The notes beneath the pieces were generated by a model, which saw only the letters and a program-made list of their open reading frames with translations, had not been told where the DNA came from and ran no database searches. Both the position numbers and the translations under genes were made by a program. A stretch of 64,000 nucleotides of DNA. Source: Minisyncoccota bacterium. Lineage in GTDB: Bacteria; Patescibacteriota; Minisyncoccia; Phycocordibacterales; Phycocordibacteraceae. Shown here piece after piece: positions 2,039 through 45,820 of this stretch (position 1 is the first letter of the stretch; each line of letters opens with the position of its first letter). The stretch lies in assembly GCA_022842945.1 (NCBI GenBank), contig JALHOO010000001.1, positions 24,847 through 88,846 on the forward strand, in the 5' to 3' direction.

Positions 2039-3168
2039 ACATCCTAATGGTTTCACTCGACCGTAAGGTCTTTATAGAAGGAGATCCTACGCGCCTACGT
2101 CTTGCGGGGTACGGCAGAGTTTTCAACGAGCTGCACATCATTGTCTATACGAAGAAGAATCTCGGTTTTGTAGACACTAAGATTGCAGACAACGTATGGC
2201 TGTATCCAACGAATTCTTCGAGTCGCTTTGTATATGTCACTGATGCAATACGTATCGCACGGAAACTCTTCAAAGGAAGAAAGCAAGGAATCTCTCTTGT
2301 GTCTGGACAAGATCTAGCAGAGACAGGGTATGCGGCCTGGCGTATCGCACGCATGTTGAAGACGCCGCTCCAGCTGCAGGACCATGCAGGAGTATTCGAC
2401 CCCTATTTCATGAGTGAAAGTGTGGGAAATAAAGTTCGGGCATTCATAGCGAGCTTTCTTCTGCCGAAGGCCGATTGTGTTCGCGTTGTTCTTCCACAGG
2501 GCAAGGAAGATATTGTTGCTCGTTTCCCGCACCTTGAGGCACGAATAGCAGTACTACCGGTATATACGCCCATTGACCACTTTAGGGACACAAGCCCGGC
2601 ATTTTCTCTGCATGATAGGTACCCGCAGTTCTCCTCGATATTTCTTATGGCGTCGAGACTTGTTCCTGAGAAGGATATTGGTTTTGCATTACGAGCCTTT
2701 AAGGAGGCAGATATAGCCGAGAGCGGACTTATCATTGTTGGGGAAGGACCATGTAAAGAAGTACTTGCAGCGGAAGTCATTGAATTAGATCTTGAAGACC
2801 GCGTGGTCTTTGTTCCGTGGGAAAAGGACCTCGTCTCGTATTACAAAACAGCAGACGTATTCCTCCTATCCTCTACGCACGAGGGGTACTGCCGTACGCT
2901 TGTTGAAACTGTTGCCTCGGGACTACCGTTCGTATCGACTGATGTTGGTGTTGCACAGACACTCATCTCTGCGGGAGCAGACGGAATTCTTGTGTCGCGT
3001 GGCGATCATGTTGGATTTAGAGATGCCATGCGTTCCAAGGTCTTCCGACCTGTAGTTGCAACCAATAGTAGAGGACTTGATCTGATTCAGAAGATGACCG
3101 GAAAAAGCGAGGAGGAGTATCGGGCCCGCTATGCTGCAAGTCTCCAGGTCTGCGCAAAGATTGTATAA
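2035..3168 (+). CDS. Glycosyltransferase family 1
   Basis: Motifs IVGEGPCKEVL...LSSTHEGYCRTLVETVASGLPFVSTDVG. The ATGA overlaps the upstream gene. Confidence 0.8.
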   Translation: MNILMVSLDRKVFIEGDPTRLRLAGYGRVFNELHIIVYTKKNLGFVDTKIADNVWLYPTNSSSRFVYVTDAIRIARKLFKGRKQGISLVSGQDLAETGYAAWRIARMLKTPLQLQDHAGVFDPYFMSESVGNKVRAFIASFLLPKADCVRVVLPQGKEDIVARFPHLEARIAVLPVYTPIDHFRDTSPAFSLHDRYPQFSSIFLMASRLVPEKDIGFALRAFKEADIAESGLIIVGEGPCKEVLAAEVIELDLEDRVVFVPWEKDLVSYYKTADVFLLSSTHEGYCRTLVETVASGLPFVSTDVGVAQTLISAGADGILVSRGDHVGFRDAMRSKVFRPVVATNSRGLDLIQKMTGKSEEEYRARYAASLQVCAKIV

Positions 3169-3176
3169 ATGCTTGT

Positions 3177-4223
3177 ATGAGACTCCTTGTTATTACTCAG
3201 GCACTCGACCTCGATGATCCAGTTCTCAGTGTTTATCATGACTGGGTAGCAGCACTCGCTAGTGTCTCGCAGAGTGTTGAGGCAGTGTGCCTTAAGGAGG
3301 GAAGGCGCGCATTGCCGGAGAACGTAACCGTGCACTCTCTGGGGAAGGAGACAGGACCGAAGTCACGTCTTGGGTATGCATGGAAATTCCTTGCTCTCGT
3401 GTGGAATAGACGCAGTCAATATGACGCGGTGTTCGTGCACATGAATCAGGAGTACGTGCTCCTGGCAGGACCTCTCTGGAGGCTTCTCGGGAAGAAGGTG
3501 TATCTCTGGCGCAACCATTACGCGGGGTCCTTGCTCACGGACCTCGCCGTGTTCTGGTGCACGGCAGTGTTCTGTACCTCGAAGCGCTCATATACGGCGA
3601 AGTATGCAAAGACTGTGCGCATGCCCGTAGGTGTGAACACGGATCGCTTCGTACAAGAGGCTGGCGAGCGTGTTCCGCGATCTCTCTTGTTATTCTCTCG
3701 CATCGCACCATCGAAGCATGTGGATCTCTTTGTTGAAGCACTTGGCCTGCTCAAGGAGAGAGGAGTAGTGTTCGTAGCTTCTATAGTCGGATCTGCTCCG
3801 CCAGAGTTCGAAGCATATGCTGCAGAAGTGAAAGAGCGTTCGAGTGAGCTCGGGCTCTCAGAGCAGCTCAGATTCTTGCCCGGCGTACTGAACGAGGATG
3901 CGCCACTGGTATACCGTCTGCACGAGATATACGTCAACTGCTCTCCGTCTGGCATGCTCGACAAGATGATTTTCGAGGCAGCAGCGTCCGGATGCCTTCT
4001 CCTAACAGAGAGCGAGGACATGCAGAGCTTCGGTTTCGAGGACGTTACGTATGACGCAGGGGATGTAGAGTCTCTTGCCAACCACATGGAGCATTTACTT
4101 AATTGCACTGACGAAGAGCGTGCTGCACTACGTGTACGGTTCGAGGCACTAGTTAAAGCACATAGCCTTACAGGCCTCGCACGAACTATTGTGGCGCACA
4201 TGGAATCAGCGGGCTCGCGGTAG
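3177..4223 (+). CDS. Glycosyltransferase family 1
   Basis: The C-terminal GT-B domain is present (KMIFEAAASGCLLL...). It lies in the glycan cluster. Confidence 0.7.
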   Translation: MRLLVITQALDLDDPVLSVYHDWVAALASVSQSVEAVCLKEGRRALPENVTVHSLGKETGPKSRLGYAWKFLALVWNRRSQYDAVFVHMNQEYVLLAGPLWRLLGKKVYLWRNHYAGSLLTDLAVFWCTAVFCTSKRSYTAKYAKTVRMPVGVNTDRFVQEAGERVPRSLLLFSRIAPSKHVDLFVEALGLLKERGVVFVASIVGSAPPEFEAYAAEVKERSSELGLSEQLRFLPGVLNEDAPLVYRLHEIYVNCSPSGMLDKMIFEAAASGCLLLTESEDMQSFGFEDVTYDAGDVESLANHMEHLLNCTDEERAALRVRFEALVKAHSLTGLARTIVAHMESAGSR

Positions 4224-4235
4224 AATCAAGGACAC

Positions 4236-4682
4236 ATGAGGTACTATCTTGATTTTGAGGGAACGTGCTTCGATTCAGATGCTTTTTCGGCGTACATGGC
4301 TGGAAAGACTGAAGACGATTTAATACCAGGAGAACTCTCACAATTCCTGTATCCCGATGCTGCCCAGTTTCTTCGTGATAAGGAGAACGCTGTAACCATC
4401 ATAACTACAGGCAGTCGCGCTACGCACGAGGCAAAGACTAAAAGTGCTCTCCATGGCATTCCACGTATGTCGGTTATGTATACGGATGGTGTAGCGAAAG
4501 GTCAGTATCTTGCTCCTCATACCCATCTCCATGTTGATGCGGTACTTGCAGACGATTCCGTTGAGGAGCTTGAGGTGCTCGCTAAAGAGTGCCCACAGCT
4601 AGGTCTGTACGAGATGCGCAGAGGCAATAGGGAAGGGGATGGTTCCTGGCCGGTTATACGCTCGCTCGCTGAGTTGCCGTAA
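4236..4682 (+). CDS. Hypothetical protein, possibly a HAD-like phosphatase
   Basis: Loose HAD motif pattern: LDFEGT (motif I-like), ITTGS, a Lys, and LADDSVEE. Assignment is weak. Confidence 0.35.
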   Translation: MRYYLDFEGTCFDSDAFSAYMAGKTEDDLIPGELSQFLYPDAAQFLRDKENAVTIITTGSRATHEAKTKSALHGIPRMSVMYTDGVAKGQYLAPHTHLHVDAVLADDSVEELEVLAKECPQLGLYEMRRGNREGDGSWPVIRSLAELP

Positions 4683-4701
4683 TGTGAGAGAATATAGGCA
4701 C

Positions 4702-5358
4702 ATGGCTTCGACGCGCATATATCGGAATAAGGCAGAGCTCATACGCTCTTCGGCGGGGCCTGAGGACACTGTTCTTGATGTGGGGTTCCTCGGACAAGGC
4801 ATACGACTTGGGGAGGAGAACTGGCCCCATGGCCTTATGCAGAAGCAAGCAAAGGAAGTGTTCGGTCTCGATCTAGAGATAGATAGGAACGCATTCCCTG
4901 ACACACGCCACTATGTTCAAGCGAGCGCTGAAGACTTCTCATTTACTGATACAAAGTTCGATCTCGTGTTTGCGGGCGACCTTATAGAACACCTTCCGAA
5001 TCCTGGACTCTTTCTCGCAAGTGTTAAAGAACACCTTACAGCCAACGGACGGTTGATACTCACAACACCGAACGCATTCAATCTGTTCAACCTAACAGAG
5101 AAACTTTCTAAGGAAGAGCCTACGGTTAATGCAGACCATACCTGCTATTTCAATTCAAAAACTCTGCGCGTGCTTCTCTCTAAGTGTGGGTTCGAGATTC
5201 AGGAGATAGGGTATGTGTACACCCTTGAATACGGACATCGCGAGAGTCTGAAGAAAAAGATTCTTAATGTGCTGTACCGAGTTCTTTCATGGTTTACTCC
5301 AAAGTTTCTCGAAACGCTTGTTGTTGTCGCGGTGCCTAAGCAAGCACATATCAACTAA
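4702..5358 (+). CDS. Class I SAM-dependent methyltransferase
   Basis: Motifs VLDVGFLGQG (motif I) and DLVFAGDLIEHLPNP...NGRLILTTPN. Start chosen at ATG 4702; the track ORF from 4639 overlaps the upstream gene. Confidence 0.7.
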   Translation: MASTRIYRNKAELIRSSAGPEDTVLDVGFLGQGIRLGEENWPHGLMQKQAKEVFGLDLEIDRNAFPDTRHYVQASAEDFSFTDTKFDLVFAGDLIEHLPNPGLFLASVKEHLTANGRLILTTPNAFNLFNLTEKLSKEEPTVNADHTCYFNSKTLRVLLSKCGFEIQEIGYVYTLEYGHRESLKKKILNVLYRVLSWFTPKFLETLVVVAVPKQAHIN

Positions 5359-5367
5359 CTCATCGAG

Positions 5368-6013
5368 CATGCCTACCCCTGTCCTTGAAAGTATTTACGC
5401 CTCGCACCATACCAAACGACGCGGAGACGGATTCGTGCTCTTGGGAGACCTCCGTGGCGGTTTTCTCAAAGAGCGCATCGGTAACGGGAAGAAGGTGCTC
5501 GATATTGGTTGTCGAGATGGTGCGCTGACGAGTTATTTTGCAGAGAATAACGATGTGCTTGGTATAGATATAGATTCAGCAGCACTAACTCGCGCCGCGG
5601 AAGACTATGGCATCCAAACAAGCCAGATTGATTTAAATGGCGACTGGAACCTTCCGCACGCAGCCTATGACGTGGTTGTGGCAGCTGAGGTTGTGGAGCA
5701 TCTGTATTATCCCGAAACGGTTTTTAAAAAGGTGCATGACGTATTAAAGCCAGGGGGCATGTTCCTCGGTACGGTTCCAAATGCGTTCTCGCTTATACAT
5801 CGCGTCAGGTACCTTATAAAAAGAAAGCGCAGCACGCCCCTCATGGATCCGACGCACATAAACCACTTCGTGGTGCGCGAACTTGAAGAAATGTTGGAAA
5901 AGCAATTCACAGACGTGCGTATCCATGGTCTTGGAAGGTACGGTACGCTTGCGCGGTTGTTTCCTCAGATGTTTGCATATGATCTTGCGTTTGAAGGACG
6001 GAAGAAGTTGTAG
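5368..6013 (+). CDS. Class I SAM-dependent methyltransferase
   Basis: Motifs VLDIGCRDGALT...DVVVAAEVVEHLYYP...LKPGGMFLGTVPN. Start at ATG 5368, after the upstream stop at 5358. Confidence 0.7.
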
Positions 6014-6024
6014 GAGGTATCTGT

Positions 6025-7053
6025 ATGGCGAGCCGGTATTTATATCTGTACGGGGGAGCGATTGGTGATGCGCTGGTCGGTATTCATACTGGCCGACTTC
6101 TAGCTGAGAATATCCCGAGCGCACGTCTCGAACTGATCTCCACTCGACACAATGTCTTTGTGAAAGAGATGGTGGCAAACCTACCGTTCATTGAGTATCG
6201 AGAACTTGATAAGAAGGATTTTGCTGCATGGTTGATACTCCCACGGTACCTCTTTCGATCGTACGCTTCAGTGGCATACGATCCGGTAACATCAGCGGTG
6301 CCATTGTGGTGGCGTCTCATACTATGGTGCGCTCGTCAGGGGAGAGGCGTGCAAGTTCGGTACCAGCGCATAGGACATGAGTCCCCACTGCCGAAAGGAG
6401 TACAGAGACGTACGTACGACTGTCAGAAGGAGAGCTTCTTTACGGATACTCCGTTGAAGATTCTTGCCTCGTGGGGTGTACCGCTTGAGCATGTCACGTT
6501 ACCTTCGTTACCCAGACGATCTTCTCCTGAAGGAAAGCCCTATATTCTGTTTCATTTCTTTGCCGCAAACTATAGTAGGAGTATCCCCACTGATCATGCG
6601 CGCTCCATTCTTCTGGCAGCTCGCACGCAGTTTCCAAACCATCTATTTATCCTGACGTGCGCCGAAAACGAAAGGGCCCGGGCAGAGAGAATGATCGAAG
6701 GGGTTTCTGGAACACGCATTGAGGAGAATCTTCCAGCAACAGAAGTAATCGCACTTCTTTCGGGCGCAGACATTGTTGTGGGAACCTCCTCAGGCATCAT
6801 CTTTATGGCAGTACACCTTGGTGTGTCGGTGGTTGCGATGTCCTGTCTTGTTGATCCGTGTTTCTTGCCGACGTATAGCACCACTACGACTATTCTTGCC
6901 GCACGAGACGAGTGTTGGTGTAATAGTGATAAGACAGGAGGGTGTGTTGAGGAGACGCCAGAGGGCGAAGTGTTTCGATGTCTCTATTACATACCAACAG
7001 AAGCTGTTGTAGAGGCGATGGTCGGTTTCTCCAATCGTTTAGTAAAGAATTAA
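6025..7053 (+). CDS. Glycosyltransferase family 9 (ADP-heptose:LPS heptosyltransferase-like)
   Basis: GT9 pattern: N-terminal GGAIGDAL, mid YILFHFFAANYSRSIP, C-terminal LLSGADIVVGTSSGIIFMAVHLG. Confidence 0.65.
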   Translation: MASRYLYLYGGAIGDALVGIHTGRLLAENIPSARLELISTRHNVFVKEMVANLPFIEYRELDKKDFAAWLILPRYLFRSYASVAYDPVTSAVPLWWRLILWCARQGRGVQVRYQRIGHESPLPKGVQRRTYDCQKESFFTDTPLKILASWGVPLEHVTLPSLPRRSSPEGKPYILFHFFAANYSRSIPTDHARSILLAARTQFPNHLFILTCAENERARAERMIEGVSGTRIEENLPATEVIALLSGADIVVGTSSGIIFMAVHLGVSVVAMSCLVDPCFLPTYSTTTTILAARDECWCNSDKTGGCVEETPEGEVFRCLYYIPTEAVVEAMVGFSNRLVKN

Positions 7054-7073
7054 CTGTTCGCCACTCTTCAATT

Positions 7074-8099
7074 ATGAGGATAAGGAAAGCACTCGTATTC
7101 AAAGCATCATCAATCGGTGATGCGCTTATGGCAAAGCACCTTCTCGAGAATGTACACGCAGCGTATCCAGAAGCACGCTGCGGTCTCTTAGTTGCAGGCA
7201 GAGGTGCCATGGTGCGCAGCCTCCTTGCTTCGTATCCGTGGATTGAGGTTCTTGAGGTGAATCGGAGGAATCCTGCGGCATTGTGGAAGTTATGGCGAAC
7301 ATATCAAGGAAGTGATCTGGTGGTTACCTCGTACGTTAAGCCCGGAGGACGCTTCGGTTTCTTTAGTAAGGTAGCTGCACGAATATTGGCACGACCTGGA
7401 TGCCTTTTTGGATTTACGGATGCGTCATGGTGGAACAGGTACGTGTATGATCATCTTCTCGAATCCAGCATGGTTCGCGCTCCACGTTTGCTTGAGGAAG
7501 ATGTTCTTAGAGTCGCAGGCATATCTATAGCGCATGAGTCGATGACGCTAAATTACCTGCCTCAACCAAAACTTCTCTCGAGACTCGAGCTAGAAGGGGC
7601 GCCGTATGTGGCAGTTCATCTCTTCGCTGGCTCTGACGGAAGAGCTATGTCGCAGAGTAAGCGTCAGGCATTGCTCGACGCTCTGTTCGCTGAGCTTCCC
7701 GGCATGACCTTCGTCCTAACCGGCACTACGTCTGAACGCCCATTCCTCGAGGAACTTACTCTTCCTGAGCGCGCCCGCATTGTCGCAGGGGATCTTACTG
7801 TGCAAGAGCTTGCGGCGCTTCTTGATGGAAGCACGTGTGTGGTTTCGGTGGGGACTGGCCCCTCCCACATGACGTCTCATCTCGGCAAGCCGCTTGTAGT
7901 TCTTGTGGTGTGTATCGGGATCCCGTGGTGTGGCAAGGAACAGTTTGGAGAAGCTGCGCCAGTGCAAATATTCTCTGATACGAGTGCTTGTGCATCAGGA
8001 CACCGGATGACAGAACAGTCCCCGGCGTGTATTGAGGGGATTGATGTCGGGAGCGTTGCTCGTGCTATGGCGACCTACGTCGAGGAGTGTTCTCGTTAG
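7074..8099 (+). CDS. Glycosyltransferase family 9 (heptosyltransferase-like), second paralog
   Basis: Motifs SSIGDALMAKHLL, YVAVHLFAGSDGRAMSQSKRQAL and LLDGSTCVVSVGTGPSHMTSHLGKPLVVL. Confidence 0.65.
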   Translation: MRIRKALVFKASSIGDALMAKHLLENVHAAYPEARCGLLVAGRGAMVRSLLASYPWIEVLEVNRRNPAALWKLWRTYQGSDLVVTSYVKPGGRFGFFSKVAARILARPGCLFGFTDASWWNRYVYDHLLESSMVRAPRLLEEDVLRVAGISIAHESMTLNYLPQPKLLSRLELEGAPYVAVHLFAGSDGRAMSQSKRQALLDALFAELPGMTFVLTGTTSERPFLEELTLPERARIVAGDLTVQELAALLDGSTCVVSVGTGPSHMTSHLGKPLVVLVVCIGIPWCGKEQFGEAAPVQIFSDTSACASGHRMTEQSPACIEGIDVGSVARAMATYVEECSR

Positions 8100-8133
8100 A
8101 CAGGACCCGGTTCTCCTATATAATCTGACTATT

Positions 8134-9165
8134 ATGAAGGCGGCTATTCTCCATACTATTGACGCTCCACTCGTCATTGCAGAGGTCGGTTTAACACCGC
8201 TTCAGGTGGGTCAGGTGCTCGTAAAGGTCCTGGTATCTGGTATTTGCGGCGCTCAGCTGCAGGAGATTGCAGGGAACAAAGGGAATGCTAAGTTCGTACC
8301 TCACCTCCTTGGACACGAGGGGTGCGGCATTGTTGAGGAAGTGGGACCGGGTGTTACTACGGTTCAAAAAGGAGACAAGGTGGTTATGCATTGGCGCCAG
8401 GGCGAAGGCATCGAATCACCGTTTCCGAAGTACGTGTACGAAGGAAAAGAAATATCTAGTGGAAGGGTAACTACCTTCAGTGAGTACGCGATTGTTTCTG
8501 AGAATCGGGTAACTACCGTGCCTTCAGATACACCCGTTGAGCTTGCGGCGCTTCTTGGTTGTGGACTCTCAACCGCGCTAGGTACTATCGAGAACGAAGC
8601 AAAGGCCCGCTTCGGGGAAAGTGTCATGATTATTGGTGTTGGGGGGCTTGGCGTAAACCTCATAACTGCGGCAAAGCTTGCAAGTGCGTACCCGATTATT
8701 GCGGTTGATATTCATGACAGTAAGAAGGAGCTCGCGCTTTCCATGGGTGCTCACATTTTTATAAACGCAAAGACCGAATCGATTGCTGATGTGCTTGCGG
8801 AGCATGGTCTCAAGAAAGTGGATGTAATTATTGACACTGCGGCTAACAAGAAAGGTACCGAGGCGGCCACCCCGCTTCTTTCTGGGACCGGTCGTTACAT
8901 TATGGTTGGTCAGCCAAAGCCTGGAGAGTCAATAGAACTCCTGGATGCGCATCATTTCTTCGAAGGCATCGGAAAGACCTTCTCGGCCACTCAAGGTGGG
9001 CGCTTTATGCCGCATGTCGATATCGCGCGCTACATCCGCCTTGCGAAAGGAAACATTCTCTCGACCGAAGGCATCATTACGCATCGTGTGAAGTTAGAAG
9101 ACGTGAATGAGGCTATTGAACTTGTGCGCAGTGGAGGAGCCAGTCGTATTCTTATAGAACTATGA
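8134..9165 (+). CDS. Zn-dependent alcohol/polyol dehydrogenase (MDR family)
   Basis: Motifs VSGICGAQLQEI, GHEGCGIVEEVGPGV and the Rossmann segment IIGVGGLGVN. The stop overlaps the downstream start (ATGA). Confidence 0.8.
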   Translation: MKAAILHTIDAPLVIAEVGLTPLQVGQVLVKVLVSGICGAQLQEIAGNKGNAKFVPHLLGHEGCGIVEEVGPGVTTVQKGDKVVMHWRQGEGIESPFPKYVYEGKEISSGRVTTFSEYAIVSENRVTTVPSDTPVELAALLGCGLSTALGTIENEAKARFGESVMIIGVGGLGVNLITAAKLASAYPIIAVDIHDSKKELALSMGAHIFINAKTESIADVLAEHGLKKVDVIIDTAANKKGTEAATPLLSGTGRYIMVGQPKPGESIELLDAHHFFEGIGKTFSATQGGRFMPHVDIARYIRLAKGNILSTEGIITHRVKLEDVNEAIELVRSGGASRILIEL

Positions 9166-10115
9166 GCACGAGACTAGATGCATTTCGTCGGATGACGCTT
9201 CTGCGTATTGCAGAAGAGGAAACCGCTAACCTCTACCTTCGTGACAAGATTATGAGCTTCGTACATTTTTATGTAGGACAGGAGGCTGTTGCTGTCGGGG
9301 TCTCAGACTCTCTTATGTCTAACGACCGCGCTATGGGGAACCATCGCTCGCATGGCCACTATCTCGCAAAGGGAGGTGATCTCCGTCGGATGCTCTGCGA
9401 ACTTCTTGGGAAGGCTGAAGGCTCGTCTCATGGAAAGGGAGGTTCTATGCATATGATTGATCGGTCTGCTGGCTTTACAGGGTCCACGCCGATACTCGGA
9501 AGTATCGTAGCTATTGCTGCAGGGTCAGCGTTCGAGCAGAAGCACAATGCTACTGGTGATGTAACCGTTGCGTACGTGGGTGACGGAGGTTCGGAAGAGG
9601 GAGGGGTATACGAGACGATGAATCTTGCCGCTCTTTTCAAACTTCCGCTCCTTATTGTGGTTGAGAATAATCTGTACTCGGTCAACTCAAAGCTGCTCGA
9701 CAGACGGTCGAAAGAGTACAGTGTGGAAGGGGTTGTGCGGAATCTCGGACTTGCGTATGCGAAAGCCGACGGCAACAACTACGACGACGTGCGCTCTAAG
9801 GCAACGGCTCTCCTTGAAGGAGTGCGCGCAGGAAAGCCTGCGGTGCTCGAGTGTCTCGCGTATCGACACATGGCGCACAGCGCGCCTATCTTTGACGACG
9901 CTCAGGGCTATAGGGAGGAGGATGTGCTTGAGCGTCGACTCGCTGAGGATTGTTTAAAGAAGATGAAAGCGCGTCTCCTTGAGGAGGGAAGTAGCGAGGA
10001 AGTGTTCAGTGATATCGAGAATGAGATACGCACGCACGTACTCGAGGAGATTGCGTACGCGGTTGCAGCACCCTATCCATCTCCTGAGACTCTCTATACA
10101 GACGTGTATGCATAA
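9162..10115 (+). CDS. TPP-dependent dehydrogenase E1 component, alpha subunit (pyruvate/acetoin dehydrogenase E1-alpha family)
   Basis: Motifs FYVGQEAVAVGV, HRSHGHYLAKGGD, GKGGSMHM and the TPP motif VGDGGSEEGGVYETMNLAALFKLPLLIVVENNLYS. Confidence 0.85.
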   Translation: MSTRLDAFRRMTLLRIAEEETANLYLRDKIMSFVHFYVGQEAVAVGVSDSLMSNDRAMGNHRSHGHYLAKGGDLRRMLCELLGKAEGSSHGKGGSMHMIDRSAGFTGSTPILGSIVAIAAGSAFEQKHNATGDVTVAYVGDGGSEEGGVYETMNLAALFKLPLLIVVENNLYSVNSKLLDRRSKEYSVEGVVRNLGLAYAKADGNNYDDVRSKATALLEGVRAGKPAVLECLAYRHMAHSAPIFDDAQGYREEDVLERRLAEDCLKKMKARLLEEGSSEEVFSDIENEIRTHVLEEIAYAVAAPYPSPETLYTDVYA

Positions 10116-11154
10116 CGAACCTCGTATTCTTAAATATACTGAAGCCTTGAGAGAGGCTACGGAGCAAGCAATGGCAGAGGACCCGTCCGTGTTCGTCATC
10201 GGTCTTGGTGTGTCATACAAGAACGGGGCAGACGGTACTACTGCAGGTTTGAAGGAGCTGTACCCAGAGCGCGTTCTCGACGTGCCTGTTTCAGAGGATG
10301 CGTTTACGGGTATGGCGGTAGGAGCTGCGATACATGGCATGCGTCCTATCGTGCACCACGGACGTGTGGAGTTTGCGCTCTTCGCAGCTGATCATATTTG
10401 TACGCAGGCGGCTAAGTGGAACTACATGTTTGGAGGGAACAATCCGGTACCTGTGGTGTTTCGTATCAATGTTGGACGTCAGTGGGGTAACGGTCCTCAG
10501 CACACCCAGTCGCTCTTCGGTCTCTTTGGAAGCGTGCTAGGACTTAAAGTGGTCATCCCGTCATCTCCGTACATGGCGAAGGGCCTCCTCAGAGCAGCGA
10601 TTAAGGATAATAATCCCGTCGTGCTTCTCGAGTCTCGGTGGGTATTTCCGGTAAAGCAGGAGGTGCCAGAAGAAGCATACGAGCTTCCGCTCGATAAGGC
10701 GCATGTGGTGCAATCGGGTAACGACCTTACCGTGGTGGCGTATGGCGACGGTGTTATTGCGGCCCGCGAAGCGATCGAACTTATTGGCGATCAAGTTGAC
10801 GTGGAGCTTATCGATCTTGTGAGCATTAACCCAATTGACGAAGAGACGATACATGCCTCCCTCAAGAAAACGGGGAGACTCCTTACGGTTGATACGACTA
10901 GTGCATCGTTCAGTATTGGTTCTGAGGTTGCTGCTCGCGCGCTGCGCATGAGTGATGTTACGTTCCGTACAACACCGGGTATGCTCTCGTGTCCTGATGT
11001 CCCGTGCCCGACGTCCACTGCCCTTAGTGAGGCGTACTACCCAACTAAGGTAGATATTGCCAATGCCATACTTGCGCAGTGCGGAAAGGACCAGATAACA
11101 AAGGAGCTTACGTTTGAGGAACTGCACCTGCCCCCTACACACACCATCGTATGA
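10108..11154 (+). CDS. TPP-dependent dehydrogenase E1 component, beta subunit
   Basis: Transketolase-like Pyr and C-terminal domains (FRINVGRQWGNGPQHTQSLFGLFGSVLGLKVVIPSSPYMAKGLL). The start ATG overlaps the alpha-subunit stop (ATGCATAA). Confidence 0.85.
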   Translation: MHNEPRILKYTEALREATEQAMAEDPSVFVIGLGVSYKNGADGTTAGLKELYPERVLDVPVSEDAFTGMAVGAAIHGMRPIVHHGRVEFALFAADHICTQAAKWNYMFGGNNPVPVVFRINVGRQWGNGPQHTQSLFGLFGSVLGLKVVIPSSPYMAKGLLRAAIKDNNPVVLLESRWVFPVKQEVPEEAYELPLDKAHVVQSGNDLTVVAYGDGVIAAREAIELIGDQVDVELIDLVSINPIDEETIHASLKKTGRLLTVDTTSASFSIGSEVAARALRMSDVTFRTTPGMLSCPDVPCPTSTALSEAYYPTKVDIANAILAQCGKDQITKELTFEELHLPPTHTIV

Positions 11155-11894
11155 AGAAGATTCTCGTTGTAGGAGAGAGCTGTAAGGACGTGTTTGTGTA
11201 CTGTCATGCACAGCGTCTGGCGCCTGATTTGCCGATACCTATCCTTGACGTTATTGATGAGAGCGAGAACCCTGGTATGGCCGCAAACGTTGAGCGGAAC
11301 ATAAAGAATATCTACCCTCATTGCGACCTTGCTACAAATGACGGGTGGGAGAGTGTTACGAAGACCAGGTACATGCACGGGAAGACTAACCATGCGTTCA
11401 TACGCATTGACTCGAAGCACCCGATTGCTGCTGCTGACATTCACGCGCTCCCGCTTGTAGACTACGACATTGTCGCTATCTCAGACTACAACAAGGGGTA
11501 CCTTTCTGAAGATGATATTGAGTATATCTGTAAGAACCACTCGTGTGTCTTTATCGATACGAAGAAGGTGCTCGGACCCTGGGTAGACGAAGCAACGTTC
11601 ATCAAGATCAATGATTTCGAGTACGAACGCTCCAAAGCAACTATTACACCCGTACTAGCAACGAAGATCATCCGTACTGAAGGAGAGAACGGTGCGTTTT
11701 TTAACGATACCCACTATCCGGTTTCGGAAAAAGTGGAAGTGCAGGACACGAGTGGCGCGGGCGACAGTTTCTTTGCAGCGCTTGTGGTTAGGTATGCAGA
11801 GACGGGGTCTATTAACGAAGCTATTGAGTTTGCGAATGACTGTGCGCGAAGGGCTGTTGCACAACGTGGCGTAACGGTTATTGAACGTCCGTAG
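11151..11894 (+). CDS. PfkB-family sugar kinase, probable D-glycero-beta-D-manno-heptose-7-phosphate kinase (RfaE domain I/HldA-like)
   Basis: PfkB C-terminal signature DTSGAGDSFFAALVV and N-terminal KILVVGESCKDVFV. Overlaps E1-beta (ATGA) and sits next to the HldC-like gene. Confidence 0.65.
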   Translation: MKKILVVGESCKDVFVYCHAQRLAPDLPIPILDVIDESENPGMAANVERNIKNIYPHCDLATNDGWESVTKTRYMHGKTNHAFIRIDSKHPIAAADIHALPLVDYDIVAISDYNKGYLSEDDIEYICKNHSCVFIDTKKVLGPWVDEATFIKINDFEYERSKATITPVLATKIIRTEGENGAFFNDTHYPVSEKVEVQDTSGAGDSFFAALVVRYAETGSINEAIEFANDCARRAVAQRGVTVIERP

Positions 11895-11897
11895 CGT

Positions 11898-12380
11898 ATG
11901 GGAAAGATTCTTCCATTCGAGCGCTTACTAGAAGAGGTTGAGCAATTGAGGAAGGCCGGGAAGACTATCGTTGCAACCAATGGTTGCTTCGATCTTCTGC
12001 ATGTGGGACATGTTCGTAATCTAGAAGCCACAAAGGCGCTGGGCGACGTGCTCGTGGTTGGTCTCAATTCCGATAAGTCAGTGCGCGAAGGAAAGGGAGA
12101 TGCGCGTCCTATCGTTCCAGAAGCAGAACGTGCTGAAATGCTCGCAGCGCTCTCATCTGTTGACTACGTATTTATATATTCTGAGCGAACGCCGTTTTCT
12201 TGGATTACTGTGCTCCGACCTGATATCCATACCAAAGGGGGAGGGGAAGACATTCGCTCCCACCCCGATCTTCAGGCGCAAATTGATGTTGTTGAGGCGG
12301 CTGGAGGAAGATTCGTGTTAGTTGAGCATCATGATGGGCGGTCCAGTTCTCACATGGTCGAAAAGATACGAAGTAAATAA
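11898..12380 (+). CDS. Cytidylyltransferase-like nucleotidyltransferase, probable D-beta-D-heptose-1-phosphate adenylyltransferase (RfaE domain II/HldC-like)
   Basis: Motifs VATNGCFDLLHVGHVRNLE...VVGLNSDKSVREGKGDARPIV...VDYVFIY. Confidence 0.8.
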   Translation: MGKILPFERLLEEVEQLRKAGKTIVATNGCFDLLHVGHVRNLEATKALGDVLVVGLNSDKSVREGKGDARPIVPEAERAEMLAALSSVDYVFIYSERTPFSWITVLRPDIHTKGGGEDIRSHPDLQAQIDVVEAAGGRFVLVEHHDGRSSSHMVEKIRSK

Positions 12381-12383
12381 AGG

Positions 12384-12413
12384 AAAGCGGACGACCGAAG
12401 GTCGTCCGCTTTG
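12384..12413. terminator. Bidirectional intrinsic terminator between convergent genes
   Basis: Hairpin AAAGCGGACGACC-GAAG-GTCGTCCGCTTT. Confidence 0.6.
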
Positions 12414-12432
12414 TAGTTCTTGCTTACTCTAG

Positions 12433-13071
12433 CTACAGAAGAATGCGCATCAGGCGCACGATTCCTGCGAGCGTGAGTGCATCAGCCGAGAGAAGGACCG
12501 ATTCCTTCCATGGCATGAAGTAGAGGTCACTTTCTTTTGCGTGATGAATCAGGTGCGCGCGAGGTCTCCATCGCGTTTCCGAAATTTGCACGAGGTCCTT
12601 AATCGGGCATTCAAGAGCAAATGTCGGCATGCCCTCGCCCTCGTGAGGATTCTGAACGAAGTACATACGATCAGAATTTACCGGAAGTCCTGGAAGCAGG
12701 CGAGCACCTGAAGTGTTGATGCCCCCTTCTTCTTGGCTTTCGCGGCATTGGGCTTCCTCGGGAGATTCATCGACTTCGACAAAACCACCGAGTAAGCACC
12801 ACACCTTTTCCGGCCCCATATTAGGCCGAGATTCGTGTACGAGACCGATGAGTATCTCGCCTGCAGGTGTCCTTGACCAAGTTACGGTCGTGGCGCCACC
12901 TTTTCCAGGTTTAAATGCCCAGCCGTTAAAATTCTCAGGACGCCATCCGAAGACAAAGACCCCATACTCAGAACTTATTTCCAGATGGCGCGGATAGATG
13001 TTTTCGCCATCTGCCCGAATAGTCCATGTAAGTGGTTTTTCTGGTGGAACAGGCGCTATAGCAAATGTCAC
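12433..13071 (-). CDS. NUDIX hydrolase
   Basis: Complete Nudix box GGFVEVDESPEEAQCRESQEEGGI (G-x5-E-x7-REUxEExGU). Confidence 0.7.
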   Translation of the reverse strand: MTFAIAPVPPEKPLTWTIRADGENIYPRHLEISSEYGVFVFGWRPENFNGWAFKPGKGGATTVTWSRTPAGEILIGLVHESRPNMGPEKVWCLLGGFVEVDESPEEAQCRESQEEGGINTSGARLLPGLPVNSDRMYFVQNPHEGEGMPTFALECPIKDLVQISETRWRPRAHLIHHAKESDLYFMPWKESVLLSADALTLAGIVRLMRILL

Positions 13072-13175
13072 GTGTGTAACTCCACTGTGTGAATATGAAC
13101 GTCAATCTTATTGCATTTAATCACATTTAGCTTAATAAGTCAATATGTAGGTACCTATCCCCTAATACCAAGTAT

Positions 13176-13781
13176 ATGAAGAAAAGGAGTATAATACGGG
13201 AAATGAGGAAAACCATCATGATGTGGGATGTGTTGAAATCCCTTAATGAAGAACATCAGTCTGCAGCAAGAAAAGACTTGAGGCTTACTTTTGAGTCCGA
13301 AACTGGTTTCGTTAAAAGAGATCAGCTCATCTATCTTTACGCGATACAACATGAAGGGTTTCTCCTTTGGAGAAAAGCAAGACACCTGTGGTGGCGCTAT
13401 TTCCACAAGCATAGGTTCCAAGGAGTTTGCTTGCATTGCAAGCTAGAAGATCTTGAACTTTCAAACTACAAAGAGGTTGGTAGAAAGCAGCGAGAGCTGA
13501 TGGGAAAGATAGATAGGGTCTTAAAAAAGGCGGAAAACTGTACACCCAAACTTGTTGAGGTTAAGGATTTGCATGACGGCTTCTATGAAGATGGCAAGAA
13601 GAAAATGGAGCGGAACATAAGGCTTACTCAGGCAGGAGAGGACTTCGTCGAGTTTGAAGGTCTTTTAAAGAAATTATGGGACGAAGATTGGAAGGTCATG
13701 ACAGGAATTGTGAGCACAATTATTGCTCTGATAACCAGCTTAACTTTATTGATCATTAAAGTTATCGAATTAGCTTCTTAG
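13176..13781 (+). CDS. Hypothetical tail-anchored membrane protein (passenger of the IS element)
   Basis: Soluble N-terminal region of about 175 aa and a single C-terminal TM helix (IVSTIIALITSLTLLIIKVI). AT-rich codon usage differs from the neighbours. Confidence 0.45.
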   Translation: MKKRSIIREMRKTIMMWDVLKSLNEEHQSAARKDLRLTFESETGFVKRDQLIYLYAIQHEGFLLWRKARHLWWRYFHKHRFQGVCLHCKLEDLELSNYKEVGRKQRELMGKIDRVLKKAENCTPKLVEVKDLHDGFYEDGKKKMERNIRLTQAGEDFVEFEGLLKKLWDEDWKVMTGIVSTIIALITSLTLLIIKVIELAS

Positions 13782-13930
13782 CTTTTGGTTTAATTTGGTT
13801 ATCCACAATATTAAATATGGTCTATGTAGGCCATATTTACCTGATTATCGTTGACGCTGTCGCTGTCGCGTGTATACTACTAGTACATATGGCTTCGGCC
13901 TCGCCCCGCCTCGTGTGGGGCAAAATTCGT

Positions 13931-14344
13931 TTATGGGAAAAGAGTGGTTTTTAAAGAAGCCACGACTTTATTAAAAGTTGGCTCATCCAGTGTTGCCATT
14001 TTCTTTACGAGCCTTCTGGCATCAATTGTTCTGACCTGTGACAGTATTACAGATCCGTCTCCCTCGTCGCCGATTTCACCTAAGTAAACGTGCCACTTAC
14101 TATTCTCCCTTTTCCTCCCAGTCAGGGCGACGCCAAAGAATTGAGATTTGTTAAATCCCCGAATTATTAAGACTGGTCGATCAAAGTTCTCTCCCGTACC
14201 GTCTTGCTCTGTACCAATGTTAACTCCTAGGGCACACCACCAAATCTCACGTTCATTGTAGAAAGGATGGTCTTCTTTAGAGTGCAGACCCTTCTTGGTT
14301 GGATGCCATGCCTCAAAATCCTTAGTATAGGGTTCCTCGTTCAT
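13931..14344 (-). CDS. MazF/PemK(Kid)-family endoribonuclease toxin-like protein with N-terminal extension
   Basis: Aligns with Kid/PemK: EIWWCALGVNIGTEQDG...RPVLIIRGFN...FFGVALTGR...VILSQVRTIDARRL...NKVVASLKTTL, versus the Kid pattern EIWLV.LDPT.G.EQ.G.RPVLIV...FN...V.VT...Q.RTID...N.VL.RL.TIL. Confidence 0.55.
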   Translation of the reverse strand: MNEEPYTKDFEAWHPTKKGLHSKEDHPFYNEREIWWCALGVNIGTEQDGTGENFDRPVLIIRGFNKSQFFGVALTGRKRENSKWHVYLGEIGDEGDGSVILSQVRTIDARRLVKKMATLDEPTFNKVVASLKTTLFP

Positions 14345-14431
14345 TTGCAGATTATTCTACGCCTTTTTGCGCGGTGCGCTATACTTTCTACATGTCCGAA
14401 CGCAACAACTTCTTCGACCTCTTAAAGAAAG

Positions 14432-15253
14432 CTATCGGCTCGCCCGTTCCAACAGGTGGGCAAACACCGGAACCGGAGAGTTCCGAAGGTTATAACGATA
14501 CGCAAACTCGTCCAAGTACGCCTGAAGGTGCTGGGGAGACACGAACGCGTACGTCCCCCGAACAGACTTCTTAAACTGGCCCCAGAAGCCTTCAATGGTG
14601 TTGGTGTGCGTATCGCCCCAGGTGTAGTGATTCTTGCCGTGCTTCACGTTGGTATGGCTGTAGCCGTACGCGCGGTATGAGAGCTTATCGTAGCCACGGT
14701 ACTCATCCGTCATAACGCGGGTACCGCGCTCTACGTTCTCTTTAACCATAGGCAGGATAACTTCTGCACGGCGGTTAGGGGCCTTCTTCACACGTACGCG
14801 TCCCTGACGCTCAACCATACCGATAACCGCGTCCTTGTTCTTGAACTTCATCGAGTTCTTGCCCTGCTTTCCGTAGTACGTCTCGTCTATCTCAACTACG
14901 CCGGACAACGGATCGCCGCCCTGCTCCATGAGGGCGCGAATCTGGTGTCCCATGCGCCACGCGCACTTGTACGTCACGCCAAGCTGACGCTGTAGCTCCT
15001 TGGCCGAAACCCCGTTCTTCGAGGACGCAAAGAGGAATATCGCATGGAACCAGAGCGTGAGGGGTGTAGAGGACTTCTCAAAGATAGTCCCTGCAAGGGG
15101 GTGTATCTGCTTTCCCTGAGGGTTAGCGTATGCCTTGCGCTTACTCATACGGCAAAACTGCTTCGCGTCAGGGTATTTCTGGCGGAATATGTAATCTAGG
15201 CACGCTTCATCTGTAGGAAACTCTTTGTGGAGGTCTTTAATCGTGTACTTCAT
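14432..15253 (-). CDS. IS1595-family (ISXO2-like) DDE transposase
   Basis: Motifs VVEIDETYYG, MTDEYRGY and HTNTIEGFWGQFKKSVRGTYAFVSPQHLQAYLDEFAYRYNLRN, which are the characteristic IS1595 C-terminus. An N-terminal zinc-ribbon-like region is present. Confidence 0.8.
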   Translation of the reverse strand: MKYTIKDLHKEFPTDEACLDYIFRQKYPDAKQFCRMSKRKAYANPQGKQIHPLAGTIFEKSSTPLTLWFHAIFLFASSKNGVSAKELQRQLGVTYKCAWRMGHQIRALMEQGGDPLSGVVEIDETYYGKQGKNSMKFKNKDAVIGMVERQGRVRVKKAPNRRAEVILPMVKENVERGTRVMTDEYRGYDKLSYRAYGYSHTNVKHGKNHYTWGDTHTNTIEGFWGQFKKSVRGTYAFVSPQHLQAYLDEFAYRYNLRNSPVPVFAHLLERASR

Positions 15254-15319
15254 TACCTATATCCTATACCAAGAGCTACTTGGCATCAAGGGATAGGTAC
15301 CAATATGTATTCCTTTTGG

Positions 15320-16567
15320 CTATTTTGCTCTCCAATATAGGAAGACTCCAAATCCAAGAACGAAGAAGCTGGTAAGTACACGTCCGGCGATAAGTCCTGC
15401 TAGGCCGAAGAGGAGGATACCCGATACCTGAAACAGTATCTGCATGATGGGGTTAACCGTATTGAAGAGATAGAGCGTCTTAACGTGTGCGTGTGCGATA
15501 AGGGCATTCGTAAGAACTCCTCCCATAGTTGCGGCAAGCGTAAGTGCGTACCATTGTGAATATGGAACCGCTTCCATGTAGGCAGGGAAGAAGATCGAGA
15601 AGAGTGGAAACGTAATAAGCATGTAGGCACCTGCAAGGAGCGCGGAAAGAAACGTGCCAACCAGGAGACGATACCCAAGACCCTGTCTAATCTCATGAGG
15701 CTTCTTGCCAACAAACTTCGGGAAGGCGGCCGCCGGGATGAATTTAAAGAGCGCACCAATGCGATCGGGGATGGCAGTTGAGAAACTGTAAATAGCGAGT
15801 GCTGCGGGACCGAGAAGGTGGAAGGTAAGAATATTGTCGATCTGCGAAGCAAGGCTTCCAAGGAGCCCCATGATGCTTAGGTGCCCACCATACCGTAAGG
15901 CCTTCGGGTCTACCGCTGTATTTGGCTTATAGGTAATGAGCGTATGCCGATAGGCAATGAATAGACCAATTGCCTGAGCGATAAGGTTTGCTCCAAGCAG
16001 AATCAATGCGGCGTCATAGAACACCGCAGCAACGCCCACACAAAGATAGTAGGGAATGTTCCACCAGAGACTGTAGAAGAACCCTCGTTTGAAATCCCTC
16101 TTTGCCTGTAGGTATGAGCCATAGGTGCTGAACGCATTGTTCAAAGGAACAAATACGCCAATGAGTATCAGACCCCACCCAATAGTCTGGTCTCCGGTGT
16201 AGAGAAAGTACGCGCCACCTACCCATGCGCCAATGAGGGGAAATATGCCCCAGCGCAACTGAGCCATAAGTGCAGAGTGTACGGACCCTTCAAACCCAAG
16301 TGCGACTGATCGCGTTACAGCACTCTTCATGCCCGTTAGAGTAAAAGCACCCACAACAGCACCGAGAGAGAGTAGGTACTGATATGTGCCGTAGGTTTCC
16401 TTTGTGAGGAAGTGACTGAAGGCGACGTAGAGAAGGAAGGAAGCGACAGATACGAAGATGGTCCCGGCATTTGACCAGAAGCCAGTCGTGGCGAGGTAGA
16501 CCATGTCGGTCTTCGTAAACCGCTCAGCGGAGCGGAGGAGGCGATGGGTTCGGCCACGGAGGTCCAT
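15320..16567 (-). CDS. Polysaccharide/oligosaccharide flippase (Wzx-like, MOP superfamily)
   Basis: About 12 predicted TM helices. The N-terminus is typical of Polysacc_synt proteins (FTKTDMVYLATTGFWSNAGTIFVSVASFLLYVAFSHFLTKETYGTYQYLLSL). Confidence 0.65.
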   Translation of the reverse strand: MDLRGRTHRLLRSAERFTKTDMVYLATTGFWSNAGTIFVSVASFLLYVAFSHFLTKETYGTYQYLLSLGAVVGAFTLTGMKSAVTRSVALGFEGSVHSALMAQLRWGIFPLIGAWVGGAYFLYTGDQTIGWGLILIGVFVPLNNAFSTYGSYLQAKRDFKRGFFYSLWWNIPYYLCVGVAAVFYDAALILLGANLIAQAIGLFIAYRHTLITYKPNTAVDPKALRYGGHLSIMGLLGSLASQIDNILTFHLLGPAALAIYSFSTAIPDRIGALFKFIPAAAFPKFVGKKPHEIRQGLGYRLLVGTFLSALLAGAYMLITFPLFSIFFPAYMEAVPYSQWYALTLAATMGGVLTNALIAHAHVKTLYLFNTVNPIMQILFQVSGILLFGLAGLIAGRVLTSFFVLGFGVFLYWRAK

Positions 16568-16643
16568 TACTAGGTAATACTAGCCTGGAACCGACTAAGG
16601 TTACAGGAACACGTTGTCTAGGATATGTGTCGGTCGTATCATA

Positions 16644-17243
16644 ATGATTATGAAGAATCCAATCTCGGTTGATATTTCAAACGCATTCGATGAACTGGCA
16701 TTGCTCTTATCAACCCTGAAAGAGGACCAAGCATTACAGGTCTCAGTACAGAGCGCCGCCGACCTGCTCTACGAAAAGCTTTTAGAGGGTGGTGTGCTTT
16801 ACACTGCTGGCAACGGAGGAAGTGCTGCAGAGGCCCAGCACCTTACCGCAGAGTTCATTGGACGTTTTCGACGGGAGCGTCGCCCTTTTCCTGCTATGGC
16901 GCTTACCGCTGAAAGCTCTGCCGTAACGGCGATTGGAAATGATTATTCCTTTGACGAAATATTCGCACGTCAGATTACGGCACTCGGGAAGCCCAATGAT
17001 GTGTTCATTGCCTTAACAACCAGTGGCAACTCGCCGAATATTATTCAGGCACTTCATGCTGCAAAGAAGAAAGGAGTAGCAACTATTAGTCTCCTTGGAA
17101 AGGGGGGCGGGATGGCAAAGGGTATTGCTGATATAGATATTATTATTCCCTCAGATACGACCGCTCGGATTCAAGAGGTGCACCTTTTGGTTATTCACGC
17201 CGTGTGCGAGGCTTTTGATACGCGTCTCCTTGGGTCTGATTGA
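16644..17243 (+). CDS. gmhA: Phosphoheptose isomerase (sedoheptulose-7-phosphate isomerase) GmhA, SIS domain
   Basis: Motifs YTAGNGGSAAEAQHLTAEFIGRF, VFIALTTSGNSPNII and ISLLGKGGG. Start chosen at ATG 16644; the track ORF begins at TTG 16614. Confidence 0.8.
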   Translation: MIMKNPISVDISNAFDELALLLSTLKEDQALQVSVQSAADLLYEKLLEGGVLYTAGNGGSAAEAQHLTAEFIGRFRRERRPFPAMALTAESSAVTAIGNDYSFDEIFARQITALGKPNDVFIALTTSGNSPNIIQALHAAKKKGVATISLLGKGGGMAKGIADIDIIIPSDTTARIQEVHLLVIHAVCEAFDTRLLGSD

Positions 17244-17285
17244 TAAAGAGCGTAAGGGTGTGGCGCATAGTATACTGGCCCTATC

Positions 17286-45725: not shown

Positions 45726-45820
45726 TCTCATACACACTTCGGATGCCCTATTCACGTTCTGTAGTTCGTGGACTGTTGGGTGCCAGTGGATGCATAGCGT
45801 ATACGATATACTTAGAATAT

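Follow-up and report, generated by a model that had tools for sequence, protein, structure and literature searches.

The five-gene operon at positions 8,134 to 12,380 of a 64,000-nucleotide stretch of Minisyncoccota bacterium DNA (GenBank assembly GCA_022842945.1, contig JALHOO010000001.1, positions 24,847 to 88,846; hereafter the window) is on balance probably a self-contained pathway to a modified, nucleotide-activated heptose for a surface glycan, and not a system for pyruvate oxidation. Its open reading frames (ORFs) form one unit on the + strand and encode an alcohol dehydrogenase (ADH), the alpha and beta subunits of a thiamine diphosphate (ThDP)-dependent E1 enzyme, a kinase and a nucleotidyltransferase. 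These labels and coordinates, proposed in the original prediction from the DNA alone, agree with the Pfam and NCBIfam annotation. From a greedy call that gave 58 ORFs with a minimum length of 70 amino acids (aa), this annotation covered approximately 49, leaving out a 4203-aa ORF and some short ORFs; the NCBIfam matches of E1alpha, E1beta, the kinase and the nucleotidyltransferase all score under the curated cut-offs. The gene content, its coupling, conservation and fusion, the absence of E2 and E3 genes from the sampled DNA and the separation of the E1 clade are direct observations. The order ADH-E1alpha-E1beta (the triad) is near-invariant in a clade of close relatives (the close clade) that has 100% bootstrap support and consists mostly of Patescibacteria.

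The ADH gene runs from an ATG at 8134 to a TGA at 9163–9165, and the ATG of E1alpha at 9162 overlaps this stop codon (ATGA). The E1beta start codon at 10108 lies within an 8-nt overlap with the end of E1alpha, the TAA of which occupies 10113–10115 (ATGCATAA), and the kinase start codon at 11151 overlaps the TGA of E1beta by 4 nt (ATGA). The nucleotidyltransferase starts at 11898, 3 nt past the TAG of the kinase, and this last pair is adjacent without overlap. Direct reading bears out the three overlaps given in the original prediction. As the 8-nt E1alpha/E1beta and 4-nt E1beta/kinase overlaps are kept in relatives of just 55–79% identity, the arrangement goes beyond chance. A predicted promoter-like site, which is the best-scoring in positions 1–17500 by consensus match alone, precedes the ADH gene. 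A strong terminator-like hairpin between the convergent nucleotidyltransferase and Nudix genes closes the operon, and the two signals enclose exactly the five operon genes (Table 1).

The E1 subunits have the general features of the pyruvate dehydrogenase (PDH) and acetoin dehydrogenase components. E1alpha carries the GDG...NN ThDP motif and is approximately 38% identical to plasmid-borne AcoA/PdhA, while E1beta matches Transket_pyr and Transketolase_C (96.2 and 78 bits, in that order) and is approximately 40% identical to human PDH E1beta (~2e-55). PDH E1 subunits are the best NCBIfam matches of both. All of the usual motifs are present, with both catalytic histidines aligning with those of PDH E1, and butanediol dehydrogenases of the medium-chain dehydrogenase/reductase (MDR) family accompany acetoin systems. 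These features would suit an ordinary catabolic E1 of pyruvate or acetoin dehydrogenase with its E2 and E3 encoded elsewhere, in which case the ADH would be a butanediol or ethanol dehydrogenase and the position among glycan genes would be incidental. The scores of the matches stand against this. E1alpha reaches 274.2 bits with PDH_E1_alph_y (cut-off 393.85), and E1beta reaches 257.8 bits (cut-off 321) and 245.3 bits (cut-off 454) with the PDH E1 beta models.

A phmmer search for homologues of E2 (lipoyl acyltransferase), E3 and lipoyl proteins found none. It covered, in all six frames, the window together with 45 loci of the close clade, or 824 kb surrounding 46 family members. The family annotation of the window ORFs also returned no E2 and no E3, in agreement with the original prediction. 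As positive controls, canonical E1 pairs from the same scans adjoin E2/E3 genes in three loci (L045, L049 and L062) and on Phaeobacter and Novosphingobium plasmids. In a neighbour-joining (distance-based) tree with a canonical sample of only five sequences, every one of 100 bootstraps recovers the close clade as monophyletic, and the E2/E3-linked and Aco-type sequences form a separate group in 84 of 100. The phylogeny of E1, which had been suggested as a check, therefore places the close clade apart. Plasmid sequences served only as canonical or outgroup sequences; no plasmid-borne close relative with curated annotation was found, as all 557 plasmid matches are less than 40% identical.

The C-terminus of E1beta is also altered. 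A tail of approximately 22 residues (11086–11154), with the consensus LSFEELHLAP, is kept in the close clade (loci L001–L044) and is missing from every E2/E3-linked E1beta sampled. Many E2-less E1beta proteins of Streptomyces and of a more distant clade (the far clade), including one on Streptomyces plasmid pSGRIFU1, have another tail that ends in F(K/R)GPF. Structural work on the Geobacillus E1-PSBD complex has reportedly placed E2 docking on the C-terminal domain of E1beta, and the added tail would fit a loss of this docking. The lack of E2/E3 in the sampled loci, the sub-cut-off scores, the separate clade and the altered E1beta C-terminus support the view that E1alpha/beta is not a PDH complex component in any detectable sense. 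The loci examined are glycan loci throughout, in lineages of Patescibacteria that reportedly ferment and do not have a tricarboxylic acid (TCA) cycle (PMC9530719). With the translational coupling to a heptose-type kinase added to this, a catabolic E1 is very improbable and ranks as the least likely of the rival explanations. What the pair shares with PdhAB and AcoAB is the fold, the ThDP motif, the catalytic residues and the subunit organization; it differs in its partners, scores, clade, E1beta extension and glycan locus.

The kinase and the nucleotidyltransferase point to heptose activation. The best NCBIfam match of the kinase is rfaE_dom_I (TIGR02198), at 101.9 bits in two stretches (cut-off 345), with ribokinase next at 44 bits. 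The protein is approximately 60 aa shorter than HldA (~310 aa) and contains the N-terminal HldA motif and the GAGD motif. Its AlphaFold model (pLDDT 93) has HldA as the best PDB match (E 2e-17, TM 0.78), with an E-value three to four orders of magnitude below that of ribokinase (1e-13). Since the model matches HldA best, a heptose-type substrate is a reasonable prediction, but by its length and score the kinase is clearly a divergent form. The nucleotidyltransferase covers the full rfaE_dom_II profile (TIGR02199) at 162.8 bits (cut-off 181.5) and has the HxGH motif as LLHVGH. A GmhA-like gene further downstream scores 215.6 bits as phosphoheptose isomerase (cut-off 276) and 191.1 bits as gmhA (cut-off 209.45), making GmhA clearly its best family. 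Directly upstream of the operon, two GT9-like genes pass the Glyco_transf_9 cut-off of 22 bits (28.6 and 24.8) and have weak NCBIfam matches to heptosyltransferase I/III. The heptose assignment of the original prediction is upheld by these matches. Known ADP-heptose-type pathways have the same GmhA-, HldA-, HldC- and GT9-like genes. The locus differs from them in its short, low-scoring kinase tied to the triad, in that neither GmhB nor the HldD epimerase was found in the window, and in belonging to a type of organism that is free of lipopolysaccharide.

The association of these genes was followed in related genomes. In the tree alignment, the E1alpha of the window is 51–70% identical to the other family members, and database searches put the conserved family at 51–83% identity. 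The listed protein-database matches are 63–98% identical; nearly all of the family's matches come from metagenome-assembled genomes (MAGs) of Patescibacteria, the others from one Cyanobium isolate and a small number of other bins. ORFs were called and clustered in 63 loci, of which 42 belong to the close clade. ADH lies directly 5′ of E1alpha in 30 of these 42, with a weaker ADH match in two more and an in-frame fusion in four. The short kinase is found within 10 kb in 24; it is directly 3′ of E1beta in 15, with the 4-nt overlap in nine. An HldC-like nucleotidyltransferase lies within 10 kb in 15 (and a weaker match in four), a GmhA-like isomerase is found in eight and GT9-like genes in 9–11, as well as in the syntenic loci L071 and L078. 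Genes of the short-chain dehydrogenase/reductase (SDR) family occur in 22 of the 42. All of the inspected loci are glycan loci, with glycosyltransferases of families GT2, GT4, GT9 and GT11, FkbM-type methyltransferases and Wzx/Wzy or Wzm/Wzt systems. The reciprocal test gave the most telling result of this survey: five kinase homologues (61–73% identical) were taken from a kinase-centred search and picked solely for long contigs, and all five lie in ADH-E1alpha-E1beta-kinase arrays. The truncated kinase is, on this basis, a dedicated member of the cassette and not a general housekeeping enzyme.

The same survey bears on the possibility that the product of ADH and E1alpha/beta is a small substituent other than a sugar, with the heptose genes merely co-regulated and supplying plain ADP-heptose to the GT9 enzymes. 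Such a substituent could be an acyloin or diol (acetoin or 2,3-butanediol), or an aldehyde-to-alcohol product of 2-oxo-acid decarboxylation, that is then attached to the glycan. Triads without a kinase, nucleotidyltransferase or GmhA within 10 kb (L002, L009, L019, L020 and L022) would suit this, as would the placement of the ADH in the small-molecule class I/III branch and the endonuclease/exonuclease/phosphatase-family protein found 3′ of the triad in 11 loci. It is hard to reconcile with the conserved 4-nt E1beta/kinase overlap and the association of all five chosen kinase homologues with the triad. The heptose link also recurs in a second E1 clade, which is deeply diverged and has activation enzymes that are not homologous, and the loci yielded no transferase that could attach such a substituent. 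A non-sugar product is accordingly held to be quite improbable.

Three protein families recur beside the triad in other loci and are not in the window. A family of ~248 aa is directly upstream of ADH in 17 loci (e.g., L031:7339–8085), and one of ~306 aa, for which precomputed annotation gives a weak hint of GT11, is in the same place in 12 (e.g., L040:2500–3420). Neither has a Pfam or NCBIfam match. Both are found among loci L006–L044, usually on the strand opposite to ADH, and they may be transferases for the modified sugar. The idea that the 248-aa family is a truncated GT9 was discarded, as an hhalign probability of 0.4 indicates that the two are unrelated. The endonuclease/exonuclease/phosphatase-family protein (~266 aa) is the third, and its loci include L002, L012, L013, L016, L017 and L039.

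Variants outside Patescibacteria extend the heptose connection. In two non-Patescibacteria loci (L001, from Cyanobium sp. HWJ4-Hawea, and L070), an HldA-like kinase (240 bits), GmhA and an HldC-GmhB fusion, the GmhB part of which scores above the cut-off at 196 bits, are contiguous with DAO-ADH-E1alpha-E1beta in an O-antigen-type cluster. DAO here is a DAO-family FAD oxidoreductase without an NCBIfam match that is encoded directly 5′ of ADH (L001:7733–8887, L070:7776–8930 and L034:7687–8859), and the loci with it include the Cyanobium and “Rheinheimera”-binned variants. Its role could be to oxidize the sugar or to provide a special 2-oxo-acid donor. In the far clade, the E2-less E1alpha/beta genes adjoin genes for GmhA, GmhB, HddA-like and HddC-like proteins, a Gmd-like 4,6-dehydratase, an RfbH-like 3-dehydrase and SDR reductases. 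By sequence, this set is recognizable as the classical, yersiniose-like route to a 3,6-dideoxy-4-keto acceptor, apparently built on GDP-heptose. E1alpha/beta pairs thus also occur in surface-glycan loci together with the classical acceptor-forming enzymes. As the link between E1 and heptose appears twice, with non-homologous HldA/HldC and HddA/HddC enzymes, this is the strongest argument that the modified sugar is a heptose.

The ADH has class III and class I ADHs as its best PDB relatives (1e-40). It has the Cys/His/Cys site and Rossmann GxGxxG motif of MDR zinc ADHs and is without the four-Cys structural-zinc lobe. The catalytic zinc ligands Cys38/His60/Cys143, the GxGGxG motif and Asp191, which corresponds to Asp223 of horse-liver ADH, are kept throughout the close clade. 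In horse-liver-type ADHs, an Asp at this position marks a preference for NAD over NADP, and the enzyme is predicted to be NAD-specific. An oxidative role fits the intact catalytic zinc site and the NAD-type Asp. In four MAG loci (L014, L021, L038 and L040) from several Patescibacteria lineages, ADH and E1alpha are fused in frame into proteins of ~660–690 aa. An apparent 593-aa ADH with an extra N-terminal domain in L002 was dismissed as an artefact of ORF calling, as its true start matches the 344-aa form.

In the proposed pathway, the GmhA-like isomerase, the short HldA-like kinase and the HldC-like nucleotidyltransferase would, by homology, convert sedoheptulose-7-phosphate into an ADP-heptose-type donor. 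The sedoheptulose-7-phosphate could be supplied by the canonical split transketolase, Rpi and Rpe encoded elsewhere in the window. The alternative that E1alpha/beta is itself the source was rejected as needless, since the window encodes the split transketolase, RpiB and Rpe. The triad would act as a carboligase module that is independent of E2 and E3. E1alpha/beta would decarboxylate a 2-oxo acid, most likely pyruvate, on ThDP. Addition of the hydroxyethyl carbanion to a carbonyl of the sugar would then create either a C-acetyl branch or a chain longer by two carbons. The NAD-type zinc ADH would oxidize a heptose hydroxyl to make this carbonyl, reduce the new acetyl group to 1-hydroxyethyl, or do both. 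The product would be a C9 branched or extended ADP-heptose, to be installed by the GT9-like and other neighbouring glycosyltransferases.

A precedent for this chemistry exists in actinomycete antibiotic pathways. The E2-less E1alpha/beta pairs known as alphaKADH2 put a pyruvate-derived acetyl branch on nucleoside diphosphate (NDP)-keto-sugars, and a separate reductase can turn this branch into 1-hydroxyethyl (PMC4802897, PMC5659172, PMC4753412, PMC12247030). Members include AviB1/B2, Plm8/9 (= Pau11/12), KstD7/8, TxnB3/4, AlmDI/DII and KbDH-alpha/beta (PMC12247030, PMC4802897, PMC5659172), the last of which has been characterized in vitro (PMC4802897, PMC5659172, PMC4753412, PMC12247030). The window pair is like them in being a two-subunit, PDH-E1-like ThDP enzyme without E2/E3 in a sugar or glycan cluster, and the proposed reaction is identical; this likeness is one of gene context and described properties, not of sequence comparison with the characterized members. 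The substrates of the alphaKADH2 enzymes are dTDP-type 4- or 3-keto-deoxyhexoses, which 4,6-dehydratases produce, and their genes lie in secondary-metabolite clusters of Actinomycetota. Here, the pair lies in a surface-glycan locus of Patescibacteria (and of a few cyanobacterial and proteobacterial genomes), with ADP-heptose-type genes and no dehydratase. It has an MDR zinc ADH as a partner, sometimes fused to E1alpha, and a dedicated truncated HldA-like kinase in the array. What is new in comparison with the known systems is therefore the phylogenetic and cellular setting, the MDR ADH partner, the ADP-heptose-type pathway, the lack of a dehydratase and the co-evolved truncated kinase.

A 2025 review describes alphaKADH2 mainly from specialized metabolites and assigns the branches of cell-surface polysaccharides to YerE-like enzymes of another ThDP superfamily (PMC12247030). 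In the biosynthesis of yersiniose A, YerE and YerF place a ThDP-dependent, pyruvate-derived two-carbon branch on a nucleotide keto-sugar for a surface polysaccharide and reduce it to 1-hydroxyethyl, as is also the chemistry of YerE-like enzymes in LPS O-antigens (PMC12247030, PMC4753412). The far-clade E1 loci have the same kind of 3,6-dideoxy-4-keto pathway setting as YerE. YerE itself belongs to the decarboxylase (acetolactate-synthase-like) superfamily, being a single-chain flavoprotein whose acceptor is a CDP-3,6-dideoxy-4-keto-hexose. The window, in contrast, encodes two subunits of the E1/transketolase type, no TPP_enzyme_N/M/C domains and no dehydratase or 3-dehydrase. The original label of “YerE/acetoin-type” consequently merges different enzymes, and the alphaKADH2 pairs are the proper precedent. 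The literature searched holds no description of E1alpha/beta pairs from a heptose locus or a Patescibacteria glycan locus.

The same enzymes, taken in gene order, could instead form the carbon–carbon bond first, on a sugar that is free or phosphorylated, with attachment of the nucleotide coming afterwards. The ADH would turn a primary alcohol of the sugar into an aldehyde, or E1 would take an aldose phosphate directly in the manner of 1-deoxy-D-xylulose 5-phosphate (DXP) synthase. The pyruvate-derived two-carbon unit would then yield a chain-extended, terminal-deoxy higher sugar that the truncated kinase would phosphorylate at the anomeric position and the nucleotidyltransferase would activate. 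The lincosamide octose pathway follows a similar logic, with a transaldolase, isomerase, kinase, phosphatase and nucleotidyltransferase. Besides the order of the genes, this scheme would account for the occurrence of the kinase only alongside the triad and for the absence of a GmhB phosphatase from the window. The substrate of the kinase could differ from that of HldA, given its missing residues and low score. The ADH is nearest to NAD-type class I/III enzymes of primary alcohols and aldehydes, the ADH-E1alpha fusion would suit the channelling of a reactive aldehyde, and ThDP carboligases usually take aldehydes as acceptors (PMC12247030). The GmhA-like gene, with the GmhB-HldC fusion of L070, speaks instead for the ordinary sedoheptulose-7-phosphate route, on which C7 would be blocked by phosphate until after the kinase step. 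In the far clade, the E1 step can only come after the sugar has been activated, given that 4,6-dehydratase and RfbH-type enzymes require NDP-sugars. We know of no precedent for E1alpha/beta acting on free sugars, and carbon–carbon bond formation ahead of activation is considered unlikely. A phosphonate route of phosphoenolpyruvate (PEP) mutase, decarboxylase, ADH and cytidylyltransferase was rejected, as the inspected loci have no PEP-mutase-like gene and the decarboxylase belongs to another family.

Several points weigh against the modified-heptose pathway. There is no SDR dehydratase (4,6-dehydratase) or other known keto-sugar-forming enzyme among the annotated window ORFs, whereas every characterized branching system relies on a keto-sugar acceptor, and to our knowledge no MDR-family ADH oxidizes an NDP-sugar. 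The close clade is no nearer to the far clade, whose glycan role is drawn from context (34–40% identity for the window E1alpha), than to the E2/E3-linked canonical proteins (31–38%), and the genome beyond the window could still encode E2/E3. In approximately 40% of the triad loci no kinase lies within 10 kb, and GmhA is seen in just 8 of 42, so the triad may also serve other sugars. A GmhB-type phosphatase was not found in the window. One candidate, the ORF at 4236–4682, was suspected from a DxDxT-like N-terminus of being a haloacid dehalogenase (HAD) phosphatase and was dropped, as it has no detectable HAD similarity. It has no Pfam match, no PDB similarity and no BLASTP match (E ≤ 1e-5) among the 63 loci, and L071 has no called gene in the corresponding place. 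The original proposal that E1 acts on a sugar, and not as PDH, holds in so far as comparative evidence places the pair outside PDH and links it to glycans and heptose. The two-carbon transfer, its donor and acceptor, the order of steps, the product and the role of the ADH are what we infer from this. In its most specific form, the proposal is that Patescibacteria, and the few cyanobacteria and proteobacteria with the cassette, make a new nine-carbon sugar from ADP-heptose and a pyruvate-derived two-carbon branch or extension, without a dehydratase, through oxidation by the ADH and with a co-evolved truncated kinase. This is advanced tentatively and is rather doubtful.

Table 1. Features of the operon and its surroundings in the window
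Feature	Position	Strand	Remarks
Glycan genes: four GT4 glycosyltransferases, one 148-aa ORF, two S-adenosylmethionine (SAM) methyltransferases	24–6013	+	Upstream, co-directional
Two GT9 (heptosyltransferase-family)-like genes	6025–7053; 6978/7074–8099	+	Directly upstream; Glyco_transf_9
Promoter-like site (predicted)	8097–8124	+	TAGACA-16 nt-TATAAT, 11/12 consensus, 10 nt 5′ of the ADH start codon
Zn-dependent MDR alcohol dehydrogenase, 343 aa	8134–9165	+	ADH_N and ADH_zinc_N (Pfam)
ThDP-dependent E1 alpha subunit, 317 aa	9162–10115	+	E1_dh 190.8 bits, whole profile
E1 beta subunit, 348 aa	10108–11154	+	Transket_pyr and Transketolase_C; clade-specific C-terminal extension (...KELTFEELHLPPTHTIV)
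Short HldA-like PfkB kinase, 247 aa	11151–11894	+	PfkB; best NCBIfam match rfaE_dom_I
HldC/RfaE-domain-II-like nucleotidyltransferase, 160 aa	11898–12380	+	CTP_transf_like; best match rfaE_dom_II
Bidirectional intrinsic-terminator-like hairpin	12384–12412		13-bp stem, 8 GC pairs; ranks first on both strands
Probable insertion	12433–15253		Nudix hydrolase (-), 201-aa hypothetical (+), MazF/PemK-like toxin (-), IS1595-family transposase (-)
Polysacc_synt flippase	15320–16567	-	Same glycan locus
GmhA-like sedoheptulose-7-phosphate isomerase	16614–17243	+	SIS_2 100 bits
Wzy_C/O-antigen-ligase-like tetratricopeptide repeat (TPR) protein	17286–19460	+	Same glycan locus
ORF of 4203 aa	27702–40313	+	Single ORF
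Transketolase, N-terminal half	43496–44353		
Fic-domain gene	44526–45725		Between the transketolase halves
Helix-turn-helix (HTH) gene	45743–46099		Between the transketolase halves
Transketolase, C-terminal half	46109–47098		
Second, full-length PfkB kinase	47314–48348	-	Best match ribokinase, 82 bits
Class I fructose-bisphosphate aldolase, longest ORF	48182–49417	+	

The genes 3′ of the operon follow the order Nudix, hypothetical, MazF-like, IS1595 transposase, flippase, GmhA-like, Wzy_C/TPR and MurB. In L071, a syntenic locus with 79% E1alpha identity, the gene order is the same, including the upstream glycan genes, and the block from Nudix to transposase is missing. This absence marks the block as a probable insertion, with GmhA normally lying ~1.3 kb from the operon, as it does from the nucleotidyltransferase in L071. 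The flippase and Wzy_C-type genes are also present in L071, L072 and L078. Nudix genes occur within heptose/E1 loci of the distant clade (L042, from Microcoleus sp. herbarium19, and L051) and beside gmd/fcl in L075 and L077. In view of this recurrence, the Nudix gene of the window may be linked to nucleotide-sugar turnover and not be mere cargo.

The remainder of the window is housekeeping, including genes for GAPDH, RpiB, Rpe, the split transketolase and a class I aldolase. The Fic-domain and HTH genes between the transketolase halves are possibly a toxin–antitoxin-like insertion. The second PfkB gene overlaps the longest ORF of the aldolase by ~170 nt, and for this reason the aldolase start is probably further downstream. 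The 4203-aa ORF is likewise part of the window, and genomes of this kind often encode giant surface proteins.

The E1alpha/beta proteins of the candidate phyla radiation are routinely labelled “pyruvate/acetoin dehydrogenase” and counted as central metabolism. Assignment of this widespread clade to glycan tailoring would change the metabolic reconstructions of these organisms. If the proposed function is true, it would extend E1-type carboligases from antibiotic pathways to cell envelopes and heptose chemistry (PMC12247030). It would then be the first cell-envelope role for alphaKADH2, and the surface glycans of this uncultured radiation would for the first time become chemically approachable. 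The 317-aa alpha and 348-aa beta subunits, with natural ADH fusions, are compact and highly conserved enzymes on which ThDP carboligation of sugars could be tested, and the cassette predicts a concrete, testable feature of Patescibacteria surface glycans.

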